Source of the DNA: an uncultured virus (IMG/VR IMGVR_UViG_2049941000_000011)
Lineage: Duplodnaviria > Heunggongvirae > Uroviricota > Caudoviricetes
Length of the DNA stretch: 64,000 nt
Direction: 5' to 3' (one strand)
IMG/VR virus record: IMGVR_UViG_2049941000_000011
The translations under genes were made by a program, and so were the position numbers. The notes below the pieces were generated by a model. It did not search any database. It was not told the DNA's origin and worked only from the letters and a program-made list of their open reading frames with translations. Every line of letters begins with the position of its first letter. The first letter of the stretch is position 1. Of this stretch, positions 40,969-64,000 are shown one piece after another.

Positions 40969-40989
40969 GACCATAAAGGAGGAAAAAAT

Positions 40990-41538
40990 ATGGCAACAAA
41001 GACTAAGAAAAGAACTATTGAGATTCCTAAATTAATGAGTCTCTCAGAGGTAGGAGCAATGTTAAAAAATCTAGAAAACGCTTCTCCTATCTCTAAAATC
41101 GTAGCGCAAGTTACTCTTGGACGATTAATCAATGGCTATGATTCTAAAGAAATTGATTCAGCCACAGGTAAACCAAAACATACACCAGGCCTTAAAGATT
41201 TCTTCAGTGAAATTACAGACGAAATCGTCAATACTTCATATGAAGATATCAAAGCAGGCTTAATTGCAGAAGGTAAACTCTGCGCTGGAGAAGAACCTGT
41301 TATTAAAATCGGTGATGACATAGCAGTCTCACTAGGAACACATACAGGAAGTATCTTTGAAATTGATAGTGATATTAAAGATATTTTACCAGATAGGTAT
41401 AAAAAGCAAATCATTGTCATTAACAAAGAACAAATTAAAGAAGACTATGAAAAAGACTTGCTTCCTACAGCGATGAGAAGTTATTGTTCTAGTCATAAAG
41501 TAACTGTTACAAAGATGACCCAGAGAAAATTAAAATAA
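40990..41538 (+). CDS. hypothetical protein between AAA and VWA genes
   Basis: 182 aa with RBS. Confidence 0.65.
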   Translation: MATKTKKRTIEIPKLMSLSEVGAMLKNLENASPISKIVAQVTLGRLINGYDSKEIDSATGKPKHTPGLKDFFSEITDEIVNTSYEDIKAGLIAEGKLCAGEEPVIKIGDDIAVSLGTHTGSIFEIDSDIKDILPDRYKKQIIVINKEQIKEDYEKDLLPTAMRSYCSSHKVTVTKMTQRKLK

Positions 41539-41575
41539 TCTGGGCCATCTGGTCTTTTTTTAGGAGGAAAATAAT

Positions 41576-50315: not shown

Positions 50316-50687
50316 ATGGTGAAAATAAAATTATACAGGTATGAATTATATCGATTCAATAAGCAATATTGCTACGAAAAAATTTATCAAAGCTTTAATT
50401 TGCAAAATGCATTAAAAGAATTAGATAAGATTTTAAGAATAAGAGCAAAGAGTGAAGAGTTTCAGCACTATGAAGATTTCATGGCAAGACTAGAAGACCG
50501 TGTCAGGAGTCATCAGGAAGATTGTCAATTAGATGAATCTTTTCTCACAGACAAAAACTGTTTCTGGAACATTCATAGCGGAACAAATTGGCAGAAACCA
50601 AAAGAACGCCATCACGAAATCGAAACAGGTGTAGATGTCGCAGGAAAACTGACAGGAAGATGGATGCTGAATGTCACCAGGCTCTAG
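50316..50687 (+). CDS. hypothetical protein, MVKIK start
   Basis: RBS gaaaggag. Confidence 0.65.
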   Translation: MVKIKLYRYELYRFNKQYCYEKIYQSFNLQNALKELDKILRIRAKSEEFQHYEDFMARLEDRVRSHQEDCQLDESFLTDKNCFWNIHSGTNWQKPKERHHEIETGVDVAGKLTGRWMLNVTRL

Positions 50688-50698
50688 GAGGTAACCGT

Positions 50699-51136
50699 AT
50701 GTTTAAAATTAAATTTGGAAATTATTATGAACTTTTTTGTGCCAATCTAAACGAAACCAAGATATGTAGATTCGGAAACAAAAAACCAGACTTATTAAAT
50801 CTGCCAGTGGGCCAGGGACTATGGGTAGAAAACACTATTGAAGAATGGTGGGACAAATTGAAAGTAGGAAGAATTAAAGCTGACGAATCTAAGTGGTGTA
50901 AATGGGCAATTGACGAAATAATAACATTCATGCTAAAGGTTGAACTTGCAGTGGAGGATGGGGATAAAGTAGCAGATATCAATAAAAAGAAACGTCACAA
51001 TACAACGCCAGAAGGATATTTTGTTAATGCCGCGGCACACACAGAGGATGTTAATTCTCTCATCACTTGTTATTTCTTTATTGGTCGTTATGGCGTAACA
51101 GAAATGTCCCTTGTTTGGGATATCCACAAGAGGTAA
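50699..51136 (+). CDS. hypothetical protein, MFKIK start
   Basis: RBS aggagg. Confidence 0.7.
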   Translation: MFKIKFGNYYELFCANLNETKICRFGNKKPDLLNLPVGQGLWVENTIEEWWDKLKVGRIKADESKWCKWAIDEIITFMLKVELAVEDGDKVADINKKKRHNTTPEGYFVNAAAHTEDVNSLITCYFFIGRYGVTEMSLVWDIHKR

Positions 51137-51141
51137 TGTGT

Positions 51142-51537
51142 ATGTTTAAGATTAAAAAGCTTGCAACATATGAAGTTATTCAATACTTTTGGTCATCTGG
51201 TTCAGGATTCAAACCTGCTAGCACCTTCATGGAACTTTTGAAAGAAGTGGAAGTGGAAATAATCCGCGAATTTCGCGGGAGCGGGATGCGCGTGGATGAA
51301 GATTTAGCTGATATATTAACAGAGTTTTGGGAATATGTCGGTAACACCCAAGGATACGCCACTGAAGACAAAATAAAAAAAGAAATTGAAATGCAATATG
51401 GGGACTATAAGGCCCGCATCAGGACTTTTATGTCTGGCTCTGGTAGAACAACAGAATATGTGATAACCATAGATTCGAAGAATTGTAGAATAACACGAGA
51501 AATTCATGTAGGAAGGAGGATGCCAAACGATGTTTAG
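51142..51537 (+). CDS. hypothetical protein, MFKIK start
   Basis: RBS gaggt. Confidence 0.7.
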   Translation: MFKIKKLATYEVIQYFWSSGSGFKPASTFMELLKEVEVEIIREFRGSGMRVDEDLADILTEFWEYVGNTQGYATEDKIKKEIEMQYGDYKARIRTFMSGSGRTTEYVITIDSKNCRITREIHVGRRMPNDV

Positions 51538-51910
51538 AATTATTTTTAACAAATGTGTAGAAAAGTATTACGTCACTTTTGGAATAGTAAGGTCTGAAAT
51601 GACAGACTTAAAGAAAGTTATCAATTGGCTAAAGATCCGTGTAGATGACATGTTTGGCAGAAGAGGTTGGAAACCTTTATTCGAGAAGTTAGAGAACCAT
51701 ATTAACATAACGCAACACATAAAAAATGATTGTTTGGGAGATATGACATTCGAGAATCGAGAGTATAGTATTAAAATACATCATAATATTTATGGTCAGC
51801 AAAAAAGGCATCTCCAATACAACATCTGTTTTTACATTCGTGGAATATTCCAGGATGGGGGAATAGTTATTGTAGAAAGGAAAAGGAGTCCAAAAAAATG
51901 TTCAAAGTAA
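51530..51910 (+). CDS. hypothetical protein, MFRII start
   Basis: RBS aaggagg. Confidence 0.7.
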   Translation: MFRIIFNKCVEKYYVTFGIVRSEMTDLKKVINWLKIRVDDMFGRRGWKPLFEKLENHINITQHIKNDCLGDMTFENREYSIKIHHNIYGQQKRHLQYNICFYIRGIFQDGGIVIVERKRSPKKCSK

Positions 51911-52215
51911 AAAAATATACTATTATATTGGATGACACCACACATGAGGGGGTTAATATTGACCAGGTCCAAAATAATTTTTTGATCGATTTATTTTTTA
52001 CAGACCAGATATCTGTTGAAAAAGCTATAACAGCCATGGAGTGGATAAGAGATGTAATCAAAAACGGGAACGATACCAAACAACGCCCATCAGGAGTAGG
52101 AATAGCACACTCAAGAGATCCAAATGACCCTGGATATCATGCATTCTGTGTTAGAATACCCCGTGAAAAGGAATCATCAATTTATTTTGATGTATATACA
52201 AATTATTTAAACTGA
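51898..52215 (+). CDS. hypothetical protein, MFKVK start (paralog of 52230)
   Basis: RBS aaggag; shared KY.I..D and VRIP..YF.V. Confidence 0.7.
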   Translation: MFKVKKYTIILDDTTHEGVNIDQVQNNFLIDLFFTDQISVEKAITAMEWIRDVIKNGNDTKQRPSGVGIAHSRDPNDPGYHAFCVRIPREKESSIYFDVYTNYLN

Positions 52216-52229
52216 GAGGAGGAGTAGCT

Positions 52230-52568
52230 ATGTTTAAAATAAAGCTTAGAAAATATATAATGACCATAGATGGTTATTCATACGAGCGTTGGACTTTTAT
52301 AAAAGCTAAGAACGACCTAATGCAACATTTATTAGCGAAAGGTATGAAGAATGCTGGTGCAGTCATCCTTCCAACTATAAGAGCTTTAAACTACATTAAA
52401 AATATATATGATGGCGTCCCAGAATCCGAGAATAAAAAACCAGAAGATATAAACATTAAAATGGGTTTAGACGAACCAGATATATATTACTCTGTTAGAA
52501 TACCTATGAAAAACACTGATGATTATGTTTTCTTCACAGTAGCAGCAAAGGAGATATCTCATGTTTAG
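52230..52568 (+). CDS. hypothetical protein, MFKIK start
   Basis: RBS gaggaggag. Confidence 0.7.
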   Translation: MFKIKLRKYIMTIDGYSYERWTFIKAKNDLMQHLLAKGMKNAGAVILPTIRALNYIKNIYDGVPESENKKPEDINIKMGLDEPDIYYSVRIPMKNTDDYVFFTVAAKEISHV

Positions 52569-52962
52569 AATAATATTTAAAAACGCATTCCACGGATGGA
52601 AACCAAAATATAAACTGCATACGGGGCGAATCTTTGATACAGTCTCAGATCCAATCGTGCAAAGATTGAGCGAATGCTTCTTGAGAATCCCAGATGAGGG
52701 TAGTTGGTTACCAAAAAAAGCTCGTCCAGAATTCTTCATAGCTGTAGCGAACAAATGTGAAAGACCCTACATGGGATTCCCATACTTGATTCCAGCTTCT
52801 ATAGATTGTTCTTTTTTAGGCGATGCTGGGGCCGTGAGAAGCAGTATTAAAAAAGGGGTTAAGAGAAAATACCCTTTTCCAAAAGTATTTGGGCCCAAAT
52901 ATTGCACGGTAGAACAACAGATAGAAGTGCTAAAAAGAATCTATAGACAATGGAGGTTATAA
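52561..52962 (+). CDS. hypothetical protein, MFRII start
   Basis: RBS aaggag. Confidence 0.7.
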   Translation: MFRIIFKNAFHGWKPKYKLHTGRIFDTVSDPIVQRLSECFLRIPDEGSWLPKKARPEFFIAVANKCERPYMGFPYLIPASIDCSFLGDAGAVRSSIKKGVKRKYPFPKVFGPKYCTVEQQIEVLKRIYRQWRL

Positions 52963-53023
52963 GATGTATATTATCTGATTATTGGTAAAAAAATAAAGTC
53001 ATTGAAGAACAGGAGGTATAGTT

Positions 53024-53287
53024 ATGAACTTAGATGGCGAAATTTATGAAGTAGAGATAGCGTATCCTACTAATAGTGGAGAATCTTCAGTTAGAAAATT
53101 CTTCGCATCCAAAGATGAAGCAAAAGAGTTTGCAATGTCATGCGCTGGAGAGGACTATGAATATTTAGACCTCTGTGAATGGGACCCATGCGGGCCCAAC
53201 TGGTCTATCATTGAACAGATTCGCACAGAAGACGGTAGAATTATAACAATCGCACAAATCGACAACACATACAAGGAGGAAAAATAG
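53024..53287 (+). CDS. hypothetical protein
   Basis: RBS aggagg. Confidence 0.6.
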   Translation: MNLDGEIYEVEIAYPTNSGESSVRKFFASKDEAKEFAMSCAGEDYEYLDLCEWDPCGPNWSIIEQIRTEDGRIITIAQIDNTYKEEK

Positions 53288-53288
53288 T

Positions 53289-53654
53289 ATGGAAAAATTT
53301 AAAATTAAAAATTTATTATTGCTCGAATTAATTAATAAAAAGAATGCCATTGAAGATTTATCCAGGGCAATGTCAAAAAACATCCACAACGTCTCAAATG
53401 TAGAATTTAAAGCATTCTATAATAAGGGGCACGGATGGATTGAAGAAAGAATCATAATGACCTACCGCGGAGGGGCTATTGCAGTAAGAAATGTAAATAT
53501 CAATTCACTTATCTGTGACTATGAAGAGGCAATGAAACTTGCCCGTGGCGGGTATTACGATGAGGTTGAAGGATATAGAAAGATGTTAGAGAACGAGAAC
53601 TACATTGATATCCTGGAAAACCTAAATGAATTTTCACCAGAGGAGGTCTATTAA
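53289..53654 (+). CDS. hypothetical protein
   Basis: 121 aa; GGYYDEV motif. Confidence 0.65.
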   Translation: MEKFKIKNLLLLELINKKNAIEDLSRAMSKNIHNVSNVEFKAFYNKGHGWIEERIIMTYRGGAIAVRNVNINSLICDYEEAMKLARGGYYDEVEGYRKMLENENYIDILENLNEFSPEEVY

Positions 53655-53655
53655 G

Positions 53656-53871
53656 ATGAAAGTCAAAACATTAATTGCAAAGTTGCGTAAGATCGCACAA
53701 AAGAATCCTGATGCCCAGGTGTTGGGATTGGGAGATGAAGATGCTGGAGCAATCTATGATGTTAGTTACTATGAGAAGTGCACAGAAGATGAACTTCCAT
53801 ATGATGGAGGTGGATGCACAGACAGATTCTTGGGCAAAGACATTGTTGTCTTGAAAGGAGAATGGAACTAA
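53656..53871 (+). CDS. hypothetical protein
   Basis: MKVKTLIAKL...PDAQV. Confidence 0.6.
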   Translation: MKVKTLIAKLRKIAQKNPDAQVLGLGDEDAGAIYDVSYYEKCTEDELPYDGGGCTDRFLGKDIVVLKGEWN

Positions 53872-54152
53872 TGAACAACGAACGCAAATTAGAATGCATC
53901 GCAGATCTCGTGAAGAATTACCTTAACGATAAGAAGGAATATTCCAGGATCCGTAACAATATGGTTTGGTATAGAGAATCAATGAAGGAGAACCAGGGCG
54001 TGGATGTCACTCCAGAACAAGCATTCATGTTCGTGATGCAAAGCCCAACCAGCATCTATCAAGATTTGACCATCGCTGAACAAAAGGAAGTAGCTGCAAG
54101 TTTATGGGCAGCGCTTGTTAGAAAGAACTATAGTTTAACCAGGATTTGGTAG
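53871..54152 (+). CDS. hypothetical protein
   Basis: RBS-supported start MNNERK. Confidence 0.6.
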   Translation: MNNERKLECIADLVKNYLNDKKEYSRIRNNMVWYRESMKENQGVDVTPEQAFMFVMQSPTSIYQDLTIAEQKEVAASLWAALVRKNYSLTRIW

Positions 54153-54164
54153 AAGGAGAATAAT

Positions 54165-54557
54165 ATGCTTAAAGTAAAAGTAACTCATGAGTATGAACTC
54201 GATCATACATTATTAACAGATATCTTATCAACGGCTCTTACAGGTAACGACCTCTGGACTGTTGATTGGGATCCAAAAGATTCGAAGGCCATGAAGGCGA
54301 ATCATCCTGAAATTACCGATTGGTGCATAGAAGATGTTCTTGCGGGATTGCTTGAAGACGGCAAGACCTTTATCTTGATAGACAACGAAGAAGGTAAAGA
54401 ACACACCGTAACGGCAGAAATGTTTGCAAATGGCATTGCCTTGTATGAAAAAGACCATGGCACTATTCAAAGTATCATGGAAGATGCAGACTTTGATTTA
54501 TGGGATGGCGATGCGGTATTGCAACTAGCAGTATTTGGGGAGGTAATTTATGGATAG
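54165..54557 (+). CDS. hypothetical phage protein
   Basis: C-terminal DAVLQLAVFGEVIYG. Confidence 0.7.
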   Translation: MLKVKVTHEYELDHTLLTDILSTALTGNDLWTVDWDPKDSKAMKANHPEITDWCIEDVLAGLLEDGKTFILIDNEEGKEHTVTAEMFANGIALYEKDHGTIQSIMEDADFDLWDGDAVLQLAVFGEVIYG

Positions 54558-54762
54558 AGAGAAACTTTACGAAGCTATTGACAACAATACACTGTTTGAT
54601 TTCATTGCTAATGAATACGACGACATGACCAAGTATGAATTGAAAGAAGTTCTTTTAGCCGTGCTTGGAGTTGGATATGACGGATGTCACAGCGAAGAAG
54701 ATGAGCGTGCCTGGATGGAACTCATCTACAACGAATTACATGATTACAGGGAGTTTTATTAA
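54550..54762 (+). CDS. hypothetical protein
   Basis: 70 aa. Confidence 0.6.
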   Translation: MDREKLYEAIDNNTLFDFIANEYDDMTKYELKEVLLAVLGVGYDGCHSEEDERAWMELIYNELHDYREFY

Positions 54763-54764
54763 TT

Positions 54765-55091
54765 ATGATGACAGCCAAAGAAAGAAAAGAAATGAGAGAA
54801 AAGTTCTTTAAAGACTTTGATATCAGCGCTGATTCAAGTAAAGATGCAGGAGTGGGCATATTGATTGCCCACCACTACATCAGTTTGGGTGAACGAGTAA
54901 TACAGACAATAACCGAAGAGGATATTGAGAGGGCTTACAAGGATGAAGTGCAGAAGCAAAAAGATGCGGAAGCGAAGGGGCTCGTATATATGGTAGAGCC
55001 CGATTTCACTAAGTTCGTATTAACAGCCTGTGTGGCATTATATAAGTTGCCATCCGAAGTAAAATATGATATAATTAAGAAATTAATATAA
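54765..55091 (+). CDS. hypothetical protein
   Basis: 108 aa. Confidence 0.6.
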   Translation: MMTAKERKEMREKFFKDFDISADSSKDAGVGILIAHHYISLGERVIQTITEEDIERAYKDEVQKQKDAEAKGLVYMVEPDFTKFVLTACVALYKLPSEVKYDIIKKLI

Positions 55092-55124
55092 TGTAGAGAT
55101 GAAGAAGTCTCTGGAGGTAAAATT

Positions 55125-55487
55125 ATGTTCAAGATTCCTAACATTGAATACAAACTTAATAAGGAAATAACAAATGAACAGCTAGTTGCAGCAGAAACCT
55201 ATTATATGACCAACACAATATTTCAAATTCGAGACGGTAGGAAGAGAACTTTCTTTATAACAAATAAGAATCCCGAAAAGAAACCAGACGGCACGATTGA
55301 GTTCCGTGAATGCAGCATGATTGACAAAACTTGTTTTGAAAAGGATGGTAGTTATCACGGCGCCCTACTCGCAGGGTTTAAATATTTTATCTTCAGAGAC
55401 GAACTCGGTGGTGACCCCGAAGGATGGTATTCTTCAGTGTATGACAGTAAAGATATAGTGGAAGCAGGTGATGAATATGAGTTTTAG
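55125..55487 (+). CDS. tandem paralog A, MFKIP start
   Basis: TIEFRECSMIDKTCF...YFIF. Confidence 0.7.
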   Translation: MFKIPNIEYKLNKEITNEQLVAAETYYMTNTIFQIRDGRKRTFFITNKNPEKKPDGTIEFRECSMIDKTCFEKDGSYHGALLAGFKYFIFRDELGGDPEGWYSSVYDSKDIVEAGDEYEF

Positions 55488-55824
55488 AATACCTAAAATC
55501 CACAAAAAACTTACACCTCTGTCCGAGGAACAACTCAAGATATTAGATGCGAGATTCGGTAGCGAAAACGTAATACTAATAGAGAAGCATGGCGTATTTA
55601 TATGTGACAAACAAACTAAACACAGTAGAGCCAAGACAGTTGAATTAAGAGACTGTAGAAAAGTGGATGGCACCTGCTTTACCAGCACGGGGGAATACGC
55701 AGGAACATATGTTGGCAAACAACAATACTTCATTATGAAAGACATGCTTGACGATAGCGAATTGTTTCTACAATACTATTATGATAGAGAAATAATAAAG
55801 GAGGGATATGAACATGAGCTTTAA
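55477..55824 (+). CDS. tandem paralog B, MSFRIP start
   Basis: TVELRDCRKVDGTCF...YFIM. Confidence 0.7.
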   Translation: MSFRIPKIHKKLTPLSEEQLKILDARFGSENVILIEKHGVFICDKQTKHSRAKTVELRDCRKVDGTCFTSTGEYAGTYVGKQQYFIMKDMLDDSELFLQYYYDREIIKEGYEHEL

Positions 55825-56158
55825 GATTCCTAGGATTCAGATTAGAAGACAACACAGGGTCTTTATATCTGAGAGCAATTTTCATAATTTACTAGACGCT
55901 GGGCATATAGTAATAAATGTTATGCTGCGAGGAACTTTTGTGTGCTCAGCTATGACTAAGCATGAAAAAGAAGCTACGATTGAATTTATTAACTGTAGAC
56001 GAGTTGATGATAGCTGTTTTGCAGAAGACGGTTTCAGAGATATGTATTGTCCTGAACCAGCAAAAAGATTTATTTTTCAAGATGCACAAGCAGAAGACCG
56101 CACTGCATACAGTTCAATCTATTATACAGATGAAATAGTAACAGAAAGAGAGGAATAG
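55814..56158 (+). CDS. tandem paralog C, MSFKIP start
   Basis: TIEFINCRRVDDSCF...RFIF. Confidence 0.7.
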   Translation: MSFKIPRIQIRRQHRVFISESNFHNLLDAGHIVINVMLRGTFVCSAMTKHEKEATIEFINCRRVDDSCFAEDGFRDMYCPEPAKRFIFQDAQAEDRTAYSSIYYTDEIVTEREE

Positions 56159-56160
56159 TT

Positions 56161-56532
56161 ATGTCTTTTAAAATTAAACCATTAGAAAAGCCAACGAAAT
56201 TTTTCGTAACAAGCAGAAGAATCAGCAATAAGATATACGAAGTATTGAAGGCTCATGGTCTTCATATATGTTATTCTCGCTACTGGGATACTGGCGACGG
56301 AGAACAACTTGAAAATAAGAATGTCTTCGCAAATTTTGCTAATACTTTCATTTTTGATAAAGAACCTCGCTGGGAAGAATCATGGACAAATCCAAAAACT
56401 GGCTTTGTAGAAAAGTGGATTCCTGATGTAAACAAATATTTGATGGAAGACGAAGTAGTACAGGACCAAGAATTTTATAAATATCTTAGTGATATTTTAG
56501 AGAAAGAAGGTGTAGAAGAATGTTTAGATTAA
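56161..56532 (+). CDS. hypothetical protein, MSFKIK start (LPD28-like motif)
   Basis: R..D.GD..QLE.KNVFANFANTFI pattern. Confidence 0.6.
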   Translation: MSFKIKPLEKPTKFFVTSRRISNKIYEVLKAHGLHICYSRYWDTGDGEQLENKNVFANFANTFIFDKEPRWEESWTNPKTGFVEKWIPDVNKYLMEDEVVQDQEFYKYLSDILEKEGVEECLD

Positions 56533-56783
56533 AGATAGACGCGGTGCATTTATTAACCTGGAGGAGCCCGTCCACTGGGGGAGTTAAATTTGTAGGATGG
56601 GACAGCAAAAGAAAGATTTATTCAACCAATTATTACGAGAACGTGGGTTTTGGAAAAAAGACAACCTGGGTAAAGACCAGAAAAGAAATTAACAATAAAG
56701 TTAAAGAACTTATATCCAAGGAATACCATGAAGTTGAATATCTAAGAGAAATTCACATATTTGGTCATGTGCATAATGAATGA
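56520..56783 (+). CDS. hypothetical protein, MFRLK start
   Basis: 87 aa. Confidence 0.6.
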   Translation: MFRLKIDAVHLLTWRSPSTGGVKFVGWDSKRKIYSTNYYENVGFGKKTTWVKTRKEINNKVKELISKEYHEVEYLREIHIFGHVHNE

Positions 56784-57225
56784 TAGGATTTTAGCTGGAA
56801 TCGTGGTTGTCGGTGCGATTGTCCTGGGGGCGGTTGCACTGATAATCAGTCTATTAATAGCTACACTCATTGATGAGAGAAAGGAGAATATGAGTAATAT
56901 GGATAGACGTTATGTTGAGGGGCACGTATCTGCCCAAGACCCTGAAGGTATTCAAGGAGCTTTGTATAAAGTTGACGCCGATGATGGTGATGTAATTAAA
57001 TATTTATACATTGACAGCATTGAAGACTATAGGGTACAATATTGGAGCTTTAATGAAGATAAAGAGCTCATAGATGGCGGTGAAATTGACACGACATCTA
57101 CAGACCCAGAAGACATCCTGGATGATGTTAAGAGCTGGGTCGGCTTAGACGGAGCCACTCTTGAAAAAGAAGAAGACTGGCTGGACATCAGTGACCTGGA
57201 AGATTGGGGTTTCACTGGAATGTAA
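56776..57225 (+). CDS. acidic protein with N-terminal TM segment (internal RBS/ATG at 56890)
   Basis: TM helix then gaaaggag-ATG in frame. Confidence 0.55.
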   Translation: MNDRILAGIVVVGAIVLGAVALIISLLIATLIDERKENMSNMDRRYVEGHVSAQDPEGIQGALYKVDADDGDVIKYLYIDSIEDYRVQYWSFNEDKELIDGGEIDTTSTDPEDILDDVKSWVGLDGATLEKEEDWLDISDLEDWGFTGM

Positions 57226-57252
57226 AAAAAAGAAGAAAGAAGGAAATAAATT

Positions 57253-57606
57253 ATGTTACAAATTAGAACAGGATGTTTTGAAACAAATAGCTCAAGCACA
57301 CACAGCTTAATCATGTGCTCAGAAAATCAATATAAAGACTGGATAGATGGAAAACTCTATTATTGTCAATGGGAAGAGTGCACAGGAGCTAAGAAAGGGC
57401 ATTTCTATACCAAAGAAGAAGCTTTAAAATTAGCACAAGGGTGCAAATGGTATGATGAAGAAGACGGATTACGTAGCGTGGGTCTATACACATTTGATGA
57501 ATGGGAAGAAGACTCTTGTGTTGAAGAAACAAAAAAATATGTTACCGAAAGTGGGGAAACAATTCTCGGATTATTAGTAGAAGAGGGTTGCTTCTCGGAT
57601 TATTAG
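57253..57606 (+). CDS. FETNSSS-motif protein 4
   Basis: MLQIRTGCFETNSSSTHSL. Confidence 0.75.
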   Translation: MLQIRTGCFETNSSSTHSLIMCSENQYKDWIDGKLYYCQWEECTGAKKGHFYTKEEALKLAQGCKWYDEEDGLRSVGLYTFDEWEEDSCVEETKKYVTESGETILGLLVEEGCFSDY

Positions 57607-57630
57607 TAGAAGAGGGTTGCTAGTAGAAGA
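57563..57630. repeat. 29-bp tandem duplication plus partial third copy
   Basis: ttctcggattattagtagaagagggttgc at 57563 and 57592, then tagtagaaga. Confidence 0.9.
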
Positions 57631-57668
57631 ATAAGCGACTATGGATGTGGAAGAAAGGAGAAATGGAC

Positions 57669-58469
57669 ATGGAAGCTAGAAATTTATTAATAGGTCTATC
57701 CATTAAACACAATGGTGACTGGGAAAAAATCTATAAAGCCGTATCTAGTAAAGATGTTGAGGAACTGGAATCATTCATCGAGCAATTTGAAAAGTCGGGA
57801 TGCAAAGCGCTGACTATGCTGGACAAAGAATATCCAGATAGTTTAAAACATAGTTATCAGCCACCGTTCGTATTATTTTACGAAGGAGATTTATCATTGC
57901 TTGACCACATAGACAGTAATCTAGCAGTAGTTGGGACTCATGAACCTACTGGATATGGTATTGAGATGACCCATAACTTAGTGGGAGAGTTGTCCAGGAG
58001 TTACAACATCGTAACAAGTATCCGTCCTGGAATAGATAGTATAGCCTGTGATGCGGCGCTGTCCAATGAATATGGTCATGTCATTGCAGTGGTGGCAGGA
58101 GGGTTCGGATGTAAAACAAAATACAAGAACTGGGACGAGCTTAAAAAGAATCATCTTGTATTAACAGAATACTTTGGAACCGAAAAACCAGAAGTCCATA
58201 AAGGATGCATGGGTAAAGATAGAATCATTGTTGGTTTATCCAAAGGGCTACTGGTCATTGAAGATACAAAAACTGGACGCTCAGCAGTAACAGCAAACCT
58301 TGCATTAAGCAATGGCAGAGAGATTCTTGCGGTTCCAGGAAGAGCTGGAGAAGATTCATTATCAAATTCTTTAATTAGAACAGGAGCTGTCCTGGTAGAA
58401 ACAGCTGAAGATGTTAAAACAGAATTAGAGGCGTTTGTAATGAGTAGCACGCCAGAGGAGGTAAAATAA
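57669..58469 (+). CDS. dprA: DprA/Smf DNA-processing protein
   Basis: YPDSLK..QPPFVLFYEG, AVVGT, GIDS, RIIVGLS, TA..AL..GREILAVPG, NSLIRTGA. Confidence 0.85.
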   Translation: MEARNLLIGLSIKHNGDWEKIYKAVSSKDVEELESFIEQFEKSGCKALTMLDKEYPDSLKHSYQPPFVLFYEGDLSLLDHIDSNLAVVGTHEPTGYGIEMTHNLVGELSRSYNIVTSIRPGIDSIACDAALSNEYGHVIAVVAGGFGCKTKYKNWDELKKNHLVLTEYFGTEKPEVHKGCMGKDRIIVGLSKGLLVIEDTKTGRSAVTANLALSNGREILAVPGRAGEDSLSNSLIRTGAVLVETAEDVKTELEAFVMSSTPEEVK

Positions 58470-58471
58470 TT

Positions 58472-59050
58472 ATGAAAAAAGATAGAAATGTAATTGCCAA
58501 CGACATTGCTGCTAAACTTAAGGGCGGCAAAAAACTGACCAAGAAAGAAATTGAATTCATTTGTGACGCCATTACAGACCCTGAGGGCGAGTTCTGTAAA
58601 AGAGAAGCTAAATTCAGATTACTAGAAATACACAACTGCAGCACAAAAATGGCAGAAGCACTCGAACCATATGCCGAAGAATCCATTAGAGATACTTTTG
58701 ATTACACCGAGTATTTCTATGATGCATTAGACGATAATTTAAGGAATGATGTTTTGGACAAAACATTTAAAGTCAAGATTCATGTAAAGTCCATCGATTA
58801 TGCAATCGAAGATGAAGACATCGTAGACCTGGTTGATGGTGATGACGAAGCTGCGTTTGAAGCGAAGAGACAAGAAATCTTAGATGGGCTTCCAAAGCAA
58901 TTAGACTTTGTACTTAAGGGAATTCCAGGTGATATTGATGATGAATCATTTGGGGACGAGGTTGCAAATGAAATTTCAGAAAGAACCAACTGGTTGATTT
59001 ATAATTGTGATTTTGATGTTGTTGAAGCTATAGAGGAGGAGGAAGACTAA
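58472..59050 (+). CDS. acidic hypothetical protein
   Basis: 192 aa. Confidence 0.65.
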   Translation: MKKDRNVIANDIAAKLKGGKKLTKKEIEFICDAITDPEGEFCKREAKFRLLEIHNCSTKMAEALEPYAEESIRDTFDYTEYFYDALDDNLRNDVLDKTFKVKIHVKSIDYAIEDEDIVDLVDGDDEAAFEAKRQEILDGLPKQLDFVLKGIPGDIDDESFGDEVANEISERTNWLIYNCDFDVVEAIEEEED

Positions 59051-59280
59051 TGAAAACCGAAAAATTTTATCTTTATTTAGACCAACCTTCTTATATTATA
59101 GCCAGGGATACACCTTATGGCAGGGTCGTGATTTCTGGGACATATAAACATAAGGATAATGCCGTGAAGGAACTTAAGAAAAGAATCGCTTTTGCTAAGA
59201 ACCAGGATGACGGCTTATCTGGATGGAGTGAACCATATCTCTTAGAGTTCACACCAAGTTCCAGGAAGGTAGAGTTATAA
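59050..59280 (+). CDS. hypothetical protein
   Basis: 76 aa. Confidence 0.6.
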   Translation: MKTEKFYLYLDQPSYIIARDTPYGRVVISGTYKHKDNAVKELKKRIAFAKNQDDGLSGWSEPYLLEFTPSSRKVEL

Positions 59281-59297
59281 AAAAAGAAAGAGGAGGA

Positions 59298-59888
59298 GTG
59301 AATATGGCAAATGATTGTACGTTTGATGTAGTGGTTCGTGGATCAAAAGAAGAAATTGATATTTTTTACAACCGCTGTTTAAAAGCTAAAGAAAACGGAA
59401 CCAAATCACACAGCTGGTGGGCTTATGCGATATTACAAGAACATGGATATAGCACATACACCATCGAGCACAAAGTAGGATTCATCGGGGGTCACCTGGA
59501 TAATTTGGGCGAACCAATCGAAGATGGAGACGAATATTTCTTAACAATCAACATGACAACACGATGGTCACCAATGATCACGGCATTTAACAGGATGTTA
59601 GGAAATTACACCACGCTAAGAGCAGTATACTTTGCTGAGGAACCTGGAATGGGCATTTATGTCAATACAGATAAAAGTGGCAGAGACTTCAATGTTGAAT
59701 ATTGCATAGAAGACTACGATGAAGATGGCTGCGGGTCAGAATATTTTGGTTCAGATGAAGAACTCAAAAAATTTATAAAAGATGTTTATGGCAAAGATCT
59801 CAAATCAATTCCGCCAGATGATGATGCAGAAATTAAAATCAACAAAACAAAAACAATTTGTTTTCATAGGTTCGCAAAACAATATTAA
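59298..59888 (+). CDS. YubB/Api92-like ferredoxin-fold protein
   Basis: MANDC.F..., TRWSP, YFAEEPGMG motifs. Confidence 0.65.
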   Translation: MNMANDCTFDVVVRGSKEEIDIFYNRCLKAKENGTKSHSWWAYAILQEHGYSTYTIEHKVGFIGGHLDNLGEPIEDGDEYFLTINMTTRWSPMITAFNRMLGNYTTLRAVYFAEEPGMGIYVNTDKSGRDFNVEYCIEDYDEDGCGSEYFGSDEELKKFIKDVYGKDLKSIPPDDDAEIKINKTKTICFHRFAKQY

Positions 59889-59901
59889 GGAGGTAAATAA
59901 T

Positions 59902-60135
59902 ATGGAAGATGTTGAAGGAAAGAAAATCAAAGAAGGGGACTTGATTCTTATTCCAGTCTTGATAAGAAAAATGTGCTACAGCATATTGGACAGTTTCCGA
60001 ATCGTTAAAGTTACCAGGATGACAGAGAAAAGTATGTGGGTCATAGACCGCAGTGGCAAAGGAAAAGAGTTTTTAATCCGCCCTGATTCTAAAAAGATTT
60101 ACAGAATTTCTAGAAAAAATTACAAAATCACTTGA
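59902..60135 (+). CDS. small SH3/KOW-like hypothetical protein
   Basis: D..GKKIKEGD. Confidence 0.55.
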   Translation: MEDVEGKKIKEGDLILIPVLIRKMCYSILDSFRIVKVTRMTEKSMWVIDRSGKGKEFLIRPDSKKIYRISRKNYKIT

Positions 60136-60160
60136 CGCCCTGGAAAACATGTTATACTAT
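60132..60160 (+). promoter_or_regulatory. possible sigmaA-type promoter for terminal operon (60185-63030)
   Basis: TTGACG plus TG-n-TATACT. Confidence 0.45.
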
Positions 60161-60184
60161 AAAGGTAACAAAAGAGGAAATAGT

Positions 60185-60820
60185 ATGAAAAAAAACAGAA
60201 AGAGTGGTATCAAAATAATGGCAGAATCACTTTCACAATCATTAAGAAACCATGTAAATGCAATGATGGCGAGGGTCATGTATCGCCGCGATGACGAAGA
60301 GTTATTAGAAAGCTGGGTCATGTATGAGATGACGTCGGATGCAATGCTTGATTCCTATGCAGGATGTAACGGATTAATCGAATGGACACAAGAAGCTTTG
60401 AAAACATATGACCATGAAAATTGGATATCGAAAGCTTGTCTTAAAAATTTAATCAGAATCCTAAAGACCCATCAAACAAGTCTCACGAAGACAGATGAAG
60501 ATTGGAAGCTTCTTAAGGAGGACTTCCATAAAGAGGCTCAGCGAAGAGCTGATAAATTTTATCCTGACGCCGCATATGAAAGTATCCTGGAAAGATTGAA
60601 TAAATATGGCAGCACCGTCATGGGTTATCATATGTATGAATCCCTTGGAGAACAAAAAGTAAAAGAAGACCTCGCCGAAAGAGGAATCAAAAACGCCAAG
60701 ATTGAAGTAACCAATTATAATGTAACAAAGGATTGCTTCGAAGACAAAGCGGTGGTGAATGGTCACTCCATGTGGGTGCTCACACCAATATTACCAATTG
60801 TAAAAATCAGCACCTGCTGA
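60185..60820 (+). CDS. hypothetical protein
   Basis: RBS-supported start MKKNRK. Confidence 0.65.
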   Translation: MKKNRKSGIKIMAESLSQSLRNHVNAMMARVMYRRDDEELLESWVMYEMTSDAMLDSYAGCNGLIEWTQEALKTYDHENWISKACLKNLIRILKTHQTSLTKTDEDWKLLKEDFHKEAQRRADKFYPDAAYESILERLNKYGSTVMGYHMYESLGEQKVKEDLAERGIKNAKIEVTNYNVTKDCFEDKAVVNGHSMWVLTPILPIVKISTC

Positions 60821-60833
60821 TGGAGGTGAAAAT

Positions 60834-61160
60834 ATGGGATTTAAGATTCCAAAGTTGAATGGGATGTTAGTCTACGTAAGATGGGTTAAAGACGAAAAAG
60901 CATCCGCAGCAGAATATGCATTCAAGATTAACAAAGATGGAGACATGCCGACAGTCGGAAACCTATATGCAGTTCGTGGCGAAAACAGCGGCACGGTCGT
61001 CGTAACAAGATTGGGAGCCGGACGCCGCGATGAGGATTCGGGGCGCTTACAGGTAACAAGAGAAGATGGAACAAAATTCAATATAACAAAACAAATGATG
61101 TTCAATCAAAAAGAATCAACAGCAACTGCAACAAAATATACTGGAAGATTCACATTATAA
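60834..61160 (+). CDS. hypothetical protein, MGFKIP start
   Basis: RBS ggaggtg. Confidence 0.7.
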   Translation: MGFKIPKLNGMLVYVRWVKDEKASAAEYAFKINKDGDMPTVGNLYAVRGENSGTVVVTRLGAGRRDEDSGRLQVTREDGTKFNITKQMMFNQKESTATATKYTGRFTL

Positions 61161-61185
61161 TAAAGAAAGAAAGGAGCGTGGTCAT

Positions 61186-62616
61186 ATGGCGGTTACCAAG
61201 AAAAAAGATCTTGGCCATAAGATTGTTGACCAATTCTCATCGATGGGAATACAGGTGAAACTAGCTAAGACAGTAGAATCGCCAAGATTCACAACTTACT
61301 ATTACAATATGCAGGATCCGCTGCAGATCCTCAAATTAAAGGATAAGCACGTAGATGTAATCCGTGACTTCAACAAAGTTAACGTCGTATACGGCCATCC
61401 TGAGGGCTATAGCTTTTCCCTGATGATTCAAAAGAAGAAAGTATCAACACTCAAAGTTTCTAAGCTTAAACAGCCTAAAACGCAATCGCCACACATCAAG
61501 GTGAATATCGGTCTAGATCTCTTAAATAAAGATGTAATCCTGGATTTCGATAAAACGAATCACCTGTTGGTAGCTGGAACTACAGGTAGCGGGAAGAGCG
61601 CCTTCATCAATACGATTCTATACACGTTAATTAAGGCTGTAGACCAGGAAGATTATGAACTTAAGCTTATAGATCCGAAGAGAGTTTCCTTCAACGCATT
61701 CAAGTCCCTGAAAAACGTGGAATTGATCACTGAGACGGAGCAAGCATCAGATCTATTCACGCAGCTAATCAAGCTAATGGAGTTCCGTTACGAATATATG
61801 GAAAGCCATGGTGAGACAGATAAGAACATCTTCAAGCCAACATTTGTCGTAGTAGATGAGCTAGCGGAGTTGATGTTGGTAGACAGAGCTAATTGTGAAG
61901 ATAAGCTTATCAGGCTCCTACAGAAGGGACGCCAGGCGAACATCCACATCATCCTGGCAACACAGCGCCCAACAACGGATGTAATCAGCGGCTTGATCAA
62001 AGCCCAGTGCGATACCAGGGTATGCCTAAAGATGGCCAGTGCTAAAGATAGCATTACGGTTATCGATAAAGGTATTGGGCAAACGCTCTTGGGTCGTGGA
62101 GATGGATTCATAAAGTATCCTGATAAACCAGATGAAATCAGGTTCCAAACCGCTTTGGTTACAGATGCTGCGATATCCAAGCAAGTATTGTCCATGAAGC
62201 AGAAGAGTCGATTCGTAGAAGACGCCCTGGAAGAAACAACATGTTCCCGTGCCGCGGGGGCTGCAGCAATGATAGCGATCAGCAACATCCGCGTGAAAGC
62301 CGCAGTGGACAAATGCATCCGCAATATATCTTCTTGGGGATTCAAGCTTCCAAAGAACTTATCCTGGGCAGAACAACAATCAAGTTCCTGGCTGGGATTG
62401 ACAAAATTCCAGGATCCATGTATAATATTAAATACTAAGCTTAATGAGCAAACGGATCCAATGATTGACATCGTCATCTACCATGAACTGGGACACATCA
62501 TTGCGGGGCCCGCAGCTGGTCACAAAGGTAGATGGAGAGAAGTAATGAACGTGATTCATGAACACACAGGGTATGTATTCCATGAATATGTATATGCCCG
62601 CATCACCGAATCATGA
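61186..62616 (+). CDS. FtsK/SpoIIIE ATPase fused to C-terminal SprT-like Zn metalloprotease domain
   Basis: HLLVAGTTGSGKS, IDPK, VVVDELAELM, LATQRP, LLGRGDG; C-terminal YHELGH..GH..W. Confidence 0.85.
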   Translation: MAVTKKKDLGHKIVDQFSSMGIQVKLAKTVESPRFTTYYYNMQDPLQILKLKDKHVDVIRDFNKVNVVYGHPEGYSFSLMIQKKKVSTLKVSKLKQPKTQSPHIKVNIGLDLLNKDVILDFDKTNHLLVAGTTGSGKSAFINTILYTLIKAVDQEDYELKLIDPKRVSFNAFKSLKNVELITETEQASDLFTQLIKLMEFRYEYMESHGETDKNIFKPTFVVVDELAELMLVDRANCEDKLIRLLQKGRQANIHIILATQRPTTDVISGLIKAQCDTRVCLKMASAKDSITVIDKGIGQTLLGRGDGFIKYPDKPDEIRFQTALVTDAAISKQVLSMKQKSRFVEDALEETTCSRAAGAAAMIAISNIRVKAAVDKCIRNISSWGFKLPKNLSWAEQQSSSWLGLTKFQDPCIILNTKLNEQTDPMIDIVIYHELGHIIAGPAAGHKGRWREVMNVIHEHTGYVFHEYVYARITES

Positions 62617-62629
62617 GAAAGGAGAGCCT

Positions 62630-62800
62630 ATGTTAGTAGCATTACTAATGGCGTTAGGATTTATATTCTTGATATTCTTAGCAGGAGCACTTAAGTCCTA
62701 CTCAGAGTTCAAAAAGATCTATGGGCCACGTCCCCCAACCGACGAAGAAGACGAACGTGCAGCTGAAGCGAAGGCTAAGCGCTCATCGGAAAACAAATAA
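62630..62800 (+). CDS. small single-TM membrane protein
   Basis: RBS gaaaggag; MLVALLMALGFIFLIFLAG. Confidence 0.6.
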   Translation: MLVALLMALGFIFLIFLAGALKSYSEFKKIYGPRPPTDEEDERAAEAKAKRSSENK

Positions 62801-62844
62801 CCAACAACCTATTGGTAGTATAGAATTTCTAAGGAAAGGAGGTA

Positions 62845-63030
62845 TTGATTACTAGGATGCTGTTGTTGCTCATCTTAACAATTATAGCAATCATATTTGG
62901 GTACATTATCTATAGCTTCATCGAAGTCAAGAAGACAGAGATGTCAAAAGATGCAAAAATCTTAGCAATCGGACTAATGTCACTACCAATAATTGCTGCG
63001 ATTGTAAGTCTCATAGCCAGCTGCTTCTAA
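62845..63030 (+). CDS. small two-TM membrane protein
   Basis: RBS aaggaggt; hydrophobic. Confidence 0.6.
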   Translation: MITRMLLLLILTIIAIIFGYIIYSFIEVKKTEMSKDAKILAIGLMSLPIIAAIVSLIASCF

Positions 63031-63062
63031 CAGGAGTAGCCCCGGCTGGGACCGAAGGACAC

Positions 63063-63093
63063 AAAGGGGAAGGCTAAAAACCTTCCTCTTTTC
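63063..63093 (+). terminator. intrinsic terminator ending plus-strand operon
   Basis: aaaggggaagg/ccttcctcttt stem. Confidence 0.6.
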
Positions 63094-63554
63094 AGCACCT
63101 GACAAAAAAACAGGATTAATTATCTATACTTTTTTATATATATTTTTTACTTAATAAAGAGTTAATTGCATATTTTTCCAGGAATTTTCCGAGAATTTAT
63201 ACTTTTTCCTACTTTTTACTGAGTTTTTCTATATTTTTATTTTTAGCCATTTTAAGCCACGAAAAAATATATAGGCATTGATCTTTTCACGCCCATATAT
63301 ATAAACGCCGCTACGGGCCTAAAAATAAATAAAAACAGGCATCTACGCGCATTTTACTACTATACGCGCGCAAATAACCCGCTCTAATTTACCAACCGTC
63401 CTAGGGTAAGTCCACGACGTTAAACTGGATAGCGGCCAGCCCCCACTATGCCATCATTTTTTTTATTTTTTTTATTACCCCGCGCGGCGGCCCGCCGGCC
63501 AACTCCGTTTTTGAAAACTCGTATCTAGCTCCGGCCGTATCTAGCTCGCCCCCC

Positions 63555-64000
63555 CTAGAGCTTCAGCGTGGCCTTTGGTGGTTGCCTGTATATGAATCCC
63601 AGTTCGTCCCTGACGCACTCTTCTATCCACTTTTCGACATCTACGTGTCCACGTCTGGTAATTATAGGGTGACTGTGGTCTTTGCCCTCGTGACTAAGCG
63701 AAGCCGATAATGATATCTCGTAATCGCCCGTGATATGTTGATAGATTTCTTCAGGATCAGGATATAAAACTAATTGATAGTCTGGTAAAGGATTAATTGT
63801 TCCGTCTCTCGCAACATCGTGTGTCACCTTATATATAACAAATTGTTGTTGTTCATCATTTTCATCAAGAAACAGAACAGAAGCGCCCGGATGACCAAAA
63901 TTCTCTCTGATCGCATTCATCACGCTATGCGCCCATTCTTTATCTAATGTAATAATATCACCAACCTGATATCGTCCTTTTAACATTTTAATTTTAAACA
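63555..64000 (-). CDS. hypothetical protein; frame extends to window edge as (M)FKIKMLKGRYQ
   Basis: reverse complement of the window end reads tg ttt aaa att aaa atg tta..., in frame with the 143 aa ORF. Confidence 0.65.
   Translation of the reverse strand, partial: FKIKMLKGRYQVGDIITLDKEWAHSVMNAIRENFGHPGASVLFLDENDEQQQFVIYKVTHDVARDGTINPLPDYQLVLYPDPEEIYQHITGDYEISLSASLSHEGKDHSHPIITRRGHVDVEKWIEECVRDELGFIYRQPPKATLKL

Follow-up and report, generated by a model that had tools for sequence, protein, structure and literature searches.

A run of small genes in an uncultured phage encodes proteins whose bodies are mostly unrelated by detectable sequence similarity but which begin with nearly the same few residues, and this start is kept by selection on the peptide. 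The genes were found in a window of 64 kb, the whole stretch of DNA analysed here, which is part of the ~140-kb genome of an uncultured cattle-gut phage that encodes a YonO-like RNA polymerase and has a GC content of 35-40%. The strict motif M-(x)-F-[KR]-[IVL] opens 12 genes that lie at 50.7-61.2 kb and have a supporting RBS, as well as one gene at the window edge, and three further genes are near-matches. We favor, at a probability of about 0.4, the reading that these genes encode tandemly amplified, fast-diverging accessory proteins with one common N-terminal interaction handle.

Distribution of the start peptide

From 50 kb onward, the window holds runs of small, lineage-specific, non-structural genes whose products measure 87-148 aa, where an earlier note on this DNA had given 87-150 aa for the tagged proteins. 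Pfam and PHROG scans place the tagged genes outside the structural module and on the same strand as the RNA polymerase, sigma factor and DprA genes. The starts named in the earlier note were all recovered. A Shine-Dalgarno motif precedes every one of them at a distance of 5-10 nt, and they are listed below by position in the window.

50316..50687, + strand: 123 aa, MVKIK; near-match in which Val replaces Phe
50699..51136, + strand: 145 aa, MFKIK; orthologue P0004 (83% identity) retains MFKIK
51142..51537, + strand: 131 aa, MFKIK; Atlas model with pLDDT 0.71
51530..51910, + strand: 126 aa, MFRIIF
51898..52215, + strand: 105 aa, MFKVK; plausible paralogue of 52230
52230..52568, + strand: 112 aa, MFKIK; AlphaFold2 model available
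52561..52962, + strand: 133 aa, MFRIIF
53289..53654, + strand: 121 aa, MEKFKIK; weak case, motif displaced by two residues but in frame
54165..54557, + strand: 130 aa, MLKVK; weak case, phrog_2355 family member
55125..55487, + strand: 120 aa, MFKIP; paralogue of 55477 and 55814
55477..55824, + strand: 115 aa, MSFRIP; orthologue P0002 (82% identity) begins MSFKIP
55814..56158, + strand: 114 aa, MSFKIP; paralogue of 55125 and 55477
56161..56532, + strand: 123 aa, MSFKIK
56520..56783, + strand: 87 aa, MFRLK
60834..61160, + strand: 108 aa, MGFKIP; directly upstream of the FtsK-SprT fusion gene
63555..64000, - strand: 148 aa, MFKIK; cut by the window end, with only the A of its ATG falling outside

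The gene at 50316 has no match in Pfam or PHROG, and the Atlas model of the 51142 product is without a neighbor at a TM of at least 0.5. The first 23 nt of 51530 and 52561 are 87% identical. The edge gene corresponds to P0155 in the protein collection (148 aa, starting MFKIK), and its relative P0156, at 83% identity to P0155, begins MFKII.

Enrichment of the motif within the window was assessed with the pattern ^M.{0,3}F[KR][IVL] on called genes. Matches were observed in 13 of the 31 genes from 50 kb onward versus none of the 79 earlier ones (Fisher p 7.8e-9), which bears out the earlier observation that the start is absent upstream of 50 kb. The absence of the motif from these 79 other phage genes means that the phage does not use it as a device for expression in general. 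When all 283 RBS-supported start candidates on both strands (ORFs of at least 30 aa) were scanned, 13 matched, comprising 12 tags and one antisense TTG at 49775. The tripeptide F[KR][IVL] occurs internally just 12 times across all called proteins. Two distant relatives are at background frequency (MT835481.1, one of 90 genes; PMBT24, one of 132), and no motif array of comparable kind was found elsewhere.

The member at 54165 gives a full-length match to the phrog_2355 profile (PHROG E 1.8e-11), and its family has 160 representatives at E ≤0.001. A profile built from these phrog_2355-like representatives has 54165 as its sole match in the window. This is a widespread phage family, and none of the listed relatives of 54165 starts with MF[KR][IVL]; in many phages the family start is a generic alternating strand.

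Constraint at the N-terminus and divergence of the bodies

Synonymous codons vary within the motif, as had been claimed. Phe is encoded by TTT in 11 tags and TTC in two, the basic residue by AAA (7), AAG (4) or AGA (4), and the aliphatic residue by ATT (8), ATA (4), GTA (2) or TTA (1). These choices match the generic 5′-end usage of non-tag genes (TTT 18 versus TTC 4; ATC in 7 of 40). The nucleotide motif begins 3 nt from the ATG in nine cases including the edge gene, 6 nt in four and 9 nt in one; it is in frame in every case and is never located upstream of an ATG. Upstream sequences of the tagged genes differ, and the likeness starts exactly at the ATG. The swaps seen are all conservative, with [KR] and [IVL] each present in 15/15 tags and Phe in 13/15.

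Conservation in relatives follows the same pattern. All four orthologue pairs seen, at 82-91% identity, keep the motif core, and the changes between orthologues (R/K and K/I) occur at permitted positions only. The in-frame placement, the ordinary synonymous codons and the orthologue pairs together show that what is constrained in the shared start is the peptide, and that this start is not a product of AT-rich codon bias.

Such bias was among the refutations that the earlier note had proposed for itself, and we give practically no weight to it or to chance. Gene starts in this AT-rich phage do avoid G or C at third positions (GC3 is 0.21 at codons 2-6 versus 0.28 in bodies), but N-terminal residue frequencies predict only ~0.14 matches where 13 were observed. 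Furthermore, the order of residues is fixed, and the scan of RBS-supported starts returned almost nothing except tags.

The description of the bodies as mostly unrelated holds for detectable sequence similarity, but not for a clear trio (55125, 55477 and 55814) or for the pair 51898/52230. Comparison of residues 9 onward by hhalign gave a probability above 95% for three of the 105 pairs and at most 2% for the other 102. Paralogy within the trio is clear (BLAST E 1e-15 to 1e-8; hhalign 96-97%), and 51898 and 52230 can be aligned over their full length with 24% identity. BLAST among the bodies yielded only the trio and a weak link between 50699 and 54165. The 54165 family profile does not support that link (probability 0.2%). 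No out-of-frame relation among the tagged genes was found when one was looked for. Body similarity, measured as Smith-Waterman z, is slightly higher between tagged proteins than between tagged proteins and controls (Mann-Whitney p 0.003). The known paralogues account for part of this excess, which hints at remote common ancestry.

Where relatives can be aligned, the N-terminus is observed to be better conserved than the body. In the 55477 family, five of the first eight columns are invariant versus 15 of the 107 later ones (p 0.004), and in the 51898/52230 pair six of the first nine are identical versus 18 of the 103 later ones (p 0.003). Sub-variants also cluster by neighborhood, with three MFKIK-type starts in a row, two MFRIIF and three M(S)F[KR]IP. 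Such an arrangement points to descent through tandem duplication rather than to independent acquisition of a tag. In five members the likeness extends to about residue 12, where FKIK is followed by 3-5 residues and then Y-E-L/V. A second family in the same phage, MIQIR..FETNSSS (four genes), likewise conserves its N-terminal segment only.

Two of the 16 products were modeled to examine the structural context of the motif. The AlphaFold2 model of 52230 (pLDDT 85.7, pTM 0.78) predicts a compact domain with strands at residues 4-13 and 16-20, helices at 23-36 and 42-60, and strands at 75-81, 84-92 and 99-111; a fold search with this model gave no clear match. Residues 1-3 are coil and the motif continues straight into strand 1. 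Since Ile4 onward lies within this strand, the demands of the fold may account for some of the constraint. The 55477 model has a core of one helix and four strands preceded by an unstructured segment at residues 1-12 (pLDDT <50), although this model is moderate (pLDDT 63, from a four-sequence alignment) and the disorder may be an artefact. The predicted architectures differ, being two strands-two helices-three strands in one case and one helix plus four strands in the other, and the Atlas structural neighbors of tagged proteins differ as well. Given the quality of the 55477 model, the suggestion that two different folds stand behind the motif is tentative. In both models the Phe and the Lys/Arg fall outside regular secondary structure.

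Readings of the shared start

In the reading that we favor, this set of small non-structural genes grew largely by local duplication followed by very fast divergence, with the extreme N-terminus x-Phe-[Lys/Arg]-[Ile/Val/Leu] as the constant element. Methionine aminopeptidase removes Met before Ser or Gly and leaves it in place before Phe. Thus x would be the retained Met in most members and probably Ser or Gly in the MSF and MGF variants, and Phe would come to lie at position 2 of the mature chain. The handle would be a short, exposed aromatic-basic-aliphatic stub at the start of the chain that, in the confident model, enters strand 1. It would mediate one and the same interaction in every tagged protein, and the variable bodies would supply different activities or targets. 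The simplest such interaction is docking on a single partner from phage or host, which is possible, although the very small size of the motif counts against it. Partner binding as the source of the constraint, along with the identity of the partner and an early or host-directed role of the proteins, is what we infer.

It is also possible, and we suggest it tentatively, that the pentapeptide is a transferable N-terminal address, such that one dedicated phage or host reader would bind the free N-terminus and route or dock more than a dozen structurally unrelated effectors. The address could send them into the virion to be co-injected, to a host machine that they have in common, or into processing or degradation at a set time. 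Such an arrangement would represent a minimal system of N-terminal effector tags in a phage of Firmicute type and would differ from the T4 sequence, which is cleavable. Export, another role raised in the earlier note, is excluded for the Sec and Tat routes because the tagged proteins lack a hydrophobic segment: the maximal 15-residue Kyte-Doolittle mean within the first 45 aa is at most 1.33 in 15/15, and GRAVY values range from -0.16 to -0.90.

Rather more doubtful is the view that the tagged genes are simply diverged tandem paralogues of one or two ancestors, whose start comprises strand 1 residues kept for folding. The tandem runs in which adjacent genes have the same sub-variants, the three proven paralogues and one plausible pair, the five members alike to about residue 12 and the slight excess of body similarity would all be expected from such descent. 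So would the predicted strand at residues 4-13 of 52230, the alternating strand that opens the 54165 family and the retention of only an N-terminal segment by the MIQIR..FETNSSS genes. However, the basic position 3 is invariant, and Phe nearly so, despite bodies saturated with change, whereas a solvent-facing strand position would normally drift, and invariant columns are about ten times as frequent at the N-terminus as in the other strands. The failure of hhalign to relate 102 of the 105 pairs, the differing predicted architectures and Atlas neighbors, and the predicted location of Phe and Lys outside regular structure also argue against a family signature.

Alternatively, M-F-K-I could be kept because Lys/Asn plus Ile/Tyr at codons 3-5 maximizes early-elongation processivity and thereby gives high yield, which we consider unlikely. 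In Verma et al. 2019 (PMC6920384), K/N-Y/I at codons 3-4 (AAVAUU, AADUAU) is the top-enriched motif among high expressers in E. coli, not a Firmicute-type host, and the effect is weaker at codons 4-5. Nine tags resemble this motif in having AU-rich codons and Lys-Ile after the second codon (Lys3-Ile4 in six, including the edge gene and MVKIK, and Lys4-Ile5 in three). The motif of that study does not require Phe and depends on codon position (PMC6920384), whereas in the tags Phe is conserved, which this explanation does not account for, and F-K-I shifts as a unit with an inserted residue instead of holding Lys at codon 3. Moreover, six tags have Arg, or Val/Leu, instead, and K/N-Y/I at codons 3-4 is present in only 3 of 95 non-tag genes and is absent from capsid and other structural genes. 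If elongation or family descent were nevertheless the cause, the array would still offer a clear example from nature of proteins whose N-terminus stays the same as their bodies diverge beyond recognition, which would be useful for gene-start annotation and expression design.

A degradation or processing signal, in which Phe at mature position 2 would destine the proteins for proteolysis at a set time or for recognition by a specific N-terminal processing enzyme, strikes us as highly improbable. Phe would occupy that position in 13 of the 14 strict or edge cases if the Met-removal rule holds, and the phage encodes its own peptide deformylase (28085-28513; Pfam E 1.8e-20). This proposal is purely inferential, however, and simple descent yields the same positional regularity.

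Should the common handle be real, these phage proteins of unknown function would be marked as clients of one partner and a four-residue probe could be used to fish for it, which would make a tractable system out of some 14 orphan genes from an uncultured phage of the rumen.

Comparison with known phage systems

In large Firmicute phages, small genes for early functions or host takeover occur in tandem arrays, as in the host-takeover module of SPO1. The array described here resembles these in its dense, small, lineage-specific genes with function unassigned, located beside regulatory and DNA-metabolism genes. We know of no common N-terminal peptide in such arrays, although our literature searching was aimed at T4. 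The repetition of a short sequence at the boundaries of genes in a variable region also recalls PeSLs, mobile promoter/stem-loop cassettes by which genes are shuffled in the hyperplastic regions of T4-type phages (PMC2839356, PMC4122927). PeSLs are non-coding nucleotide elements, whereas in this array upstream sequences differ and it is the peptide that is constrained.

The precedent cited in the earlier note was the internal proteins of T4. According to two accounts (PMC3012670, PMC9026906), IPI, IPII, IPIII and Alt are divergent small proteins of a variable locus with a short N-terminal peptide in common. The same accounts describe the variable cargo as thought to act in host takeover or anti-defence, the internal-protein cargo of T4 and relatives as basic, and the 10-residue targeting peptide as a propeptide cut by the prohead protease after L/I-x-E (PMC3012670, PMC9026906). 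A sequence of this type would route the tagged proteins into the prohead for co-injection. The phage has a full head module (portal, terminase, capsid), and the conservation of an extreme N-terminal peptide on otherwise divergent small phage proteins (13 strict and 3 near) in a variable locus parallels T4 as these sources describe it.

The precedent nevertheless fits poorly. Only 4-5 residues are common here versus 10 in T4, and five of the 15 tagged proteins have [LI]xE within residues 6-30, scattered over positions 13-27, versus 16 of 86 controls, which reveals no common cleavage site, at least for a protease of T4 specificity, though one of different specificity is possible. The tagged proteins have no common charge (pI 4.2-9.9; net charge -20 to +14), unlike the basic cargo described for T4. 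Their genes are located among those for RNA polymerase, sigma factor, DprA and FtsK-like proteins, with the head genes on the opposite strand, and no prohead protease family was matched by PHROGs or Pfam in the minus-strand structural genes within the 64 of ~140 kb covered. In addition, the motif leads into strand 1 in the confident 52230 model, so cleaving it off would be predicted to truncate the sheet. The short motif, the lack of a cleavage site or charge pattern and the non-structural locus make cleavable targeting of the T4 type very unlikely. A common handle in this array would instead stand beside the capsid-targeting paradigm of T4 as a second, mechanistically different example.

Starts, enrichment and genome setting of the tagged genes

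Many small genes at and beyond 50 kb share a start of the form M-(x)-F-[KR]-[IVL], here called the tag, and are named by their start coordinates (50316, 50699, 51142, 51530, 51898, 52230, 52561, 53289, 54165, 55125, 55477, 55814, 56161, 56520 and 60834). Near matches are 50316 (MVKIK), 53289 (MEKFKIK) and 54165 (MLKVK). All of the starts named by the earlier note are present, each with a Shine-Dalgarno sequence 5-10 nt upstream. At 55477 and 55814 the second ATG is the better start by RBS spacing, so that these two proteins open with MSFRIP and MSFKIP. The window ends inside one further gene, the edge gene (63555-64000, minus strand), for which the protein collection has a 148-aa entry starting with MFKIK.

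The earlier note had asked for an enrichment test, and the outcome is clear. When the called genes of the window are searched for M followed by at most three residues and then F, [KR], [IVL], matches are found in 13 of the 31 genes at or beyond 50 kb and in none of the 79 before (Fisher p 7.8e-9); about 0.14 matches are predicted from N-terminal residue frequencies. The two strands together offer 283 RBS-supported start candidates, of which 13 match, comprising 12 tags and one antisense TTG, and inside the called proteins of the window F[KR][IVL] is seen just 12 times. The background in two distant relatives is 1 of 90 called genes (MT835481.1) and 1 of 132 (Enterocloster phage PMBT24). That the shared start arose by chance is scarcely credible.

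Tagged genes form two runs, one of seven consecutive genes (50316-52962) and one of five (55125-56783), with singles at 53289, 54165 and 60834 and one on the opposite strand at the window edge. Neighbouring tagged genes also have start sub-variants in common, and together with the runs this indicates growth by local duplication. Another small protein (53626-53871, plus strand) opens with an alternating basic/aliphatic strand but without Phe; translation probably begins at an internal Met (MKVKT...), as the alignment with phrog_6161 opens at residue 11.

Principal features of the window
1 to 19 kb, minus strand: head and packaging genes (terminase and portal hits, virion structural protein)
20813-23065, plus strand: YonO-like single-chain two-barrel RNA polymerase (phrog_8308, E 6e-64)
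28085-28513, plus strand: peptide deformylase
33841-34890, plus strand: sigma-70-type factor
61186-62616, plus strand: FtsK/SpoIIIE-type ATPase (Pfam E 2e-31), directly after tagged gene 60834

The window is phage DNA. The capsid protein of the 1-19 kb block is ~26% identical to capsid proteins of large Bacillus phages, and the best relatives of the RNA polymerase (24-33% identity) are an unannotated human-faecal phage record, Bacillus phage BUCT082, Enterocloster and Thomasclavelia phages, Clostridium phage c-st and SPbeta-like phages. The C-terminal part of the ATPase at 61186-62616 has a weak SprT-like metalloprotease match (E 9e-4, under the Pfam cutoff), and 61142-64000 is covered by a DNA contig from another gut run with 151 differing letters. 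Further auxiliary genes on the plus strand encode a pentapeptide-repeat protein with DUF5758 (30159-30719), a radical-SAM-like protein (31271-32161) and a nucleoside 2-deoxyribosyltransferase (32648-33130), and 39484-43423 (plus strand) holds a MoxR-type AAA_5 ATPase followed by a CobT-type VWA protein. Two genes on the plus strand are related to DprA: 57669-58469 encodes a full DNA_processg_A protein (E 1.6e-40), and 49088-49912 is without a Pfam hit and resembles the former only over ~70 N-terminal residues (BLAST E 7e-10).

Because the window proteins are on record in the protein collection within a contig of 139,732 bases, the window corresponds to about half of the genome. A sibling phage, roughly 83% identical, is on record in the same collection. 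All N runs in the window lie before 20.3 kb. Between 47 and 64 kb, promoter-like sites (56 versus 53 +/- 8 in shuffles) and terminator-like sites (17 versus 10.6 +/- 3.2) are no guide to timing.

Level of constraint, orthologues and distribution

Several sequence features point to a constraint on the tag that would act at the peptide rather than the nucleotide level. Counted as nucleotides over both strands, the window has 111 copies of the motif. No more than 40 nt separate 18 of them from a called start, and tags make up 14 of those 18. Relative to the ATG the tag is always in frame, at +3 in nine cases (edge gene included), +6 in four and +9 in one, and never upstream. Such in-frame shifts favour a peptide constraint, since neither an RNA operator nor a recombination cassette would have to keep to the frame on moving. 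Tagged genes resemble one another in nucleotides from the ATG on, for 15-27 nt before the similarity fades, and are unlike in their upstream regions.

The synonymous variation previously claimed is borne out (TTT/TTC, AAA/AAG/AGA, ATT/ATA/GTA/TTA). Few tag codons end in C, as at codons 2-6 of non-tag genes (TTT 18 : TTC 4; ATC 7/40), and GC3 in those genes is 0.21 at codons 2-6 compared to 0.28 in the gene bodies. Motif position 3 is Lys or Arg, and position 4 Ile, Val or Leu, in all 15 genes. Under the rule that methionine aminopeptidase takes off Met ahead of Ser or Gly but leaves it ahead of Phe, all strict cases would have Phe as the second residue of the mature chain.

Conservation of the tag among orthologues was also seen, the core being kept in all four relatives found, which is a weak test at 82-91% identity. 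The pairs are MSFRIP and MSFKIP for 55477 (82% identity), MFKIK in both for 50699 (83%), MLKVK in both for 54165 (91%), and MFKIK and MFKII for the edge gene (83%); all changes fall inside the permitted residue classes.

Relatives are otherwise scarce. Word-index protein searches brought up one or two close relatives per query and otherwise just the query, and with 50.2-57.3 kb as a blastn query none of 50,697 phage records matched. No related locus was found in IMG/VR with 54165, 55125, DprA and FtsK-SprT as queries, nor was any match to the 55477-family alignment found in genome contigs and JGI metagenome contigs. A scan of IMG/VR with a two-tag DNA pattern returned 94 loci, only three with two ORF-starting matches, none with an RBS-supported tagged gene and none with a comparable array; the pattern is narrow, and the scan is therefore weak evidence that arrays are absent elsewhere.

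The window DNA is present whole in four bovine-gut metagenome runs from one sample, possibly the source, and small shares of it occur in 13 further runs from nine other studies. Four of these runs were aligned to the window. The tagged block has patchy cover in the two DNA runs, which carries no weight. Two studies each supply a bovine-gut RNA library with contigs that are identical, or almost identical, to parts of 51522-53745, 56295-60943 and 63055-63669. These hint at transcription of the tagged block and fall short of proving it, because DNA can be present in such libraries.

Relatedness and predicted structure of the bodies

The earlier description of the bodies, meaning the proteins beyond the tag, as mostly unrelated holds for most pairs as far as sequence similarity can be detected and fails for one trio. 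With the first eight residues cut off, 102 of 105 hhalign comparisons score at or below 2%, whereas 55125, 55477 and 55814 are related to one another at 96-97%; no tag-control pair among 390 exceeds 50%. All-versus-all BLAST recovers the same trio (E 1e-15 to 1e-8) plus a weak link between 50699 and 54165, and 51898 aligns end to end with 52230 at 24% identity. Smith-Waterman z scores of bodies are slightly higher between tagged proteins than against controls (median 0.15 versus -0.17; Mann-Whitney p 0.003), with 5.7% versus 1.3% of pairs above z 3, an excess to which the known paralogues add. A frameshift origin of the bodies was rejected: when every protein was compared by tblastn with the other genes in all frames, no out-of-frame match emerged.

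No Pfam family was found among the 15 tagged proteins, and only 54165 has a PHROG family. This protein belongs to a widespread family (160 representatives at E <=0.001) whose listed members mostly start with MK and then a generic alternating strand, the MF[KR][IVL] start being present in none of those listed. The family profile matches no window protein besides 54165, and its best hit in a PDB sequence search has an E of 0.03. Pairwise BLAST would make 50699 a member (E 2e-4), yet the family HMM gives E 7.8 and profile comparison a probability of 0.2%.

The model of 52230, aligned with 51898, is confident (pLDDT 85.7, pTM 0.78). It predicts strands at residues 4-13 and 16-20, helices at 23-36 and 42-60, and strands at 75-81, 84-92 and 99-111, with coil at residues 1-3 leading straight into strand 1. 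This fold has no clear match: the best PDB Foldseek E is 0.038, the best BFVD E is 1.8e-3 at TM 0.30, and the best match in the VIA wide search is RsbW (Z 5.3, 75 residues, rmsd 2.7). A model of 55477 from a four-sequence alignment is of moderate quality (pLDDT 63), with a core of one helix and four strands, residues 1-12 below pLDDT 50 and without secondary structure, and no match in a fold search. ESM Atlas returned no feature hits, and structural neighbours there reach TM about 0.5 or less. The two predicted architectures appear to differ, a distinction that is not firm given the moderate 55477 model.

Within each of these two families the N-terminus is the best conserved part. In the 55477 family 5 of 8 N-terminal columns are invariant, versus 15 of 107 elsewhere (p 0.004), and 51898 and 52230 are identical at 6 of 9 N-terminal positions, versus 18 of 103 elsewhere (p 0.003).

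The same phage carries a second set of four plus-strand genes (30722-31258, 36238-37023, 37047-37469 and 57253-57606) with an N-terminal segment in common, MIQIR or MLQIR followed by FETNSSSxH, in which 13 of the first 17 residues are invariant. Their bodies (117-261 aa) align poorly, and they match phrog_28997 (unknown function) and nothing in Pfam or PDB sequence searches. This common segment has the look of a motif for catalysis or metal binding.

Interpretation of the tag and comparison with T4

We tentatively read the tag, with a probability of about 40%, as an N-terminal interaction handle by which the members of a fast-evolving group of accessory proteins would share a putative partner. 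This group would have grown by local duplication, with bodies diverging past detection and the Phe, basic and aliphatic residues being held. A family signature without separate function is possible, if somewhat doubtful. Neutral descent does not explain the held residues, and ordinary strand geometry explains the held solvent-facing basic position poorly.

An optimum for early elongation could also keep an M-F-K-I start, and we consider this unlikely. In excerpts from Verma et al. 2019 (PMC6920384), high expression in E. coli goes most strongly with Lys/Asn then Ile/Tyr at codons 3-4, and less strongly with the same motif at codons 4-5. This description covers nine tags. However, six do not, the invariant Phe is left unexplained, and the motif gives no reason for the whole F-K-I unit to shift on residue insertion; moreover, it is present in only 3 of 95 other genes and in no structural gene. 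Export, also proposed earlier, finds no support, since no tagged protein has a hydrophobic segment fit for a signal peptide, and an N-terminal processing or degradation signal has a very small chance of being correct.

The interaction handle that we favour would differ from the precedent cited by the earlier note, the capsid-targeting sequence of T4 internal proteins. As described in excerpts of PMC9026906 and PMC3012670, this sequence is the first 10 residues, the prohead protease cuts after L/I-x-E, and the cargo is basic. A T4-like capsid address is improbable here. After the tag, just 5 of 15 proteins have [LI]xE, at positions 13-27, versus 16 of 86 controls. Prohead protease families have no hits in the visible structural block, which counts little for or against in a window that covers about half of the genome. 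The tagged proteins range in pI from 4.2 to 9.9, in contrast to the basic T4 cargo. The neighbours of their genes serve regulation and DNA metabolism, and the head genes are on the other strand. Finally, the 52230 model has the motif passing without a break into strand 1, a predicted arrangement unlike the removable propeptide of T4.
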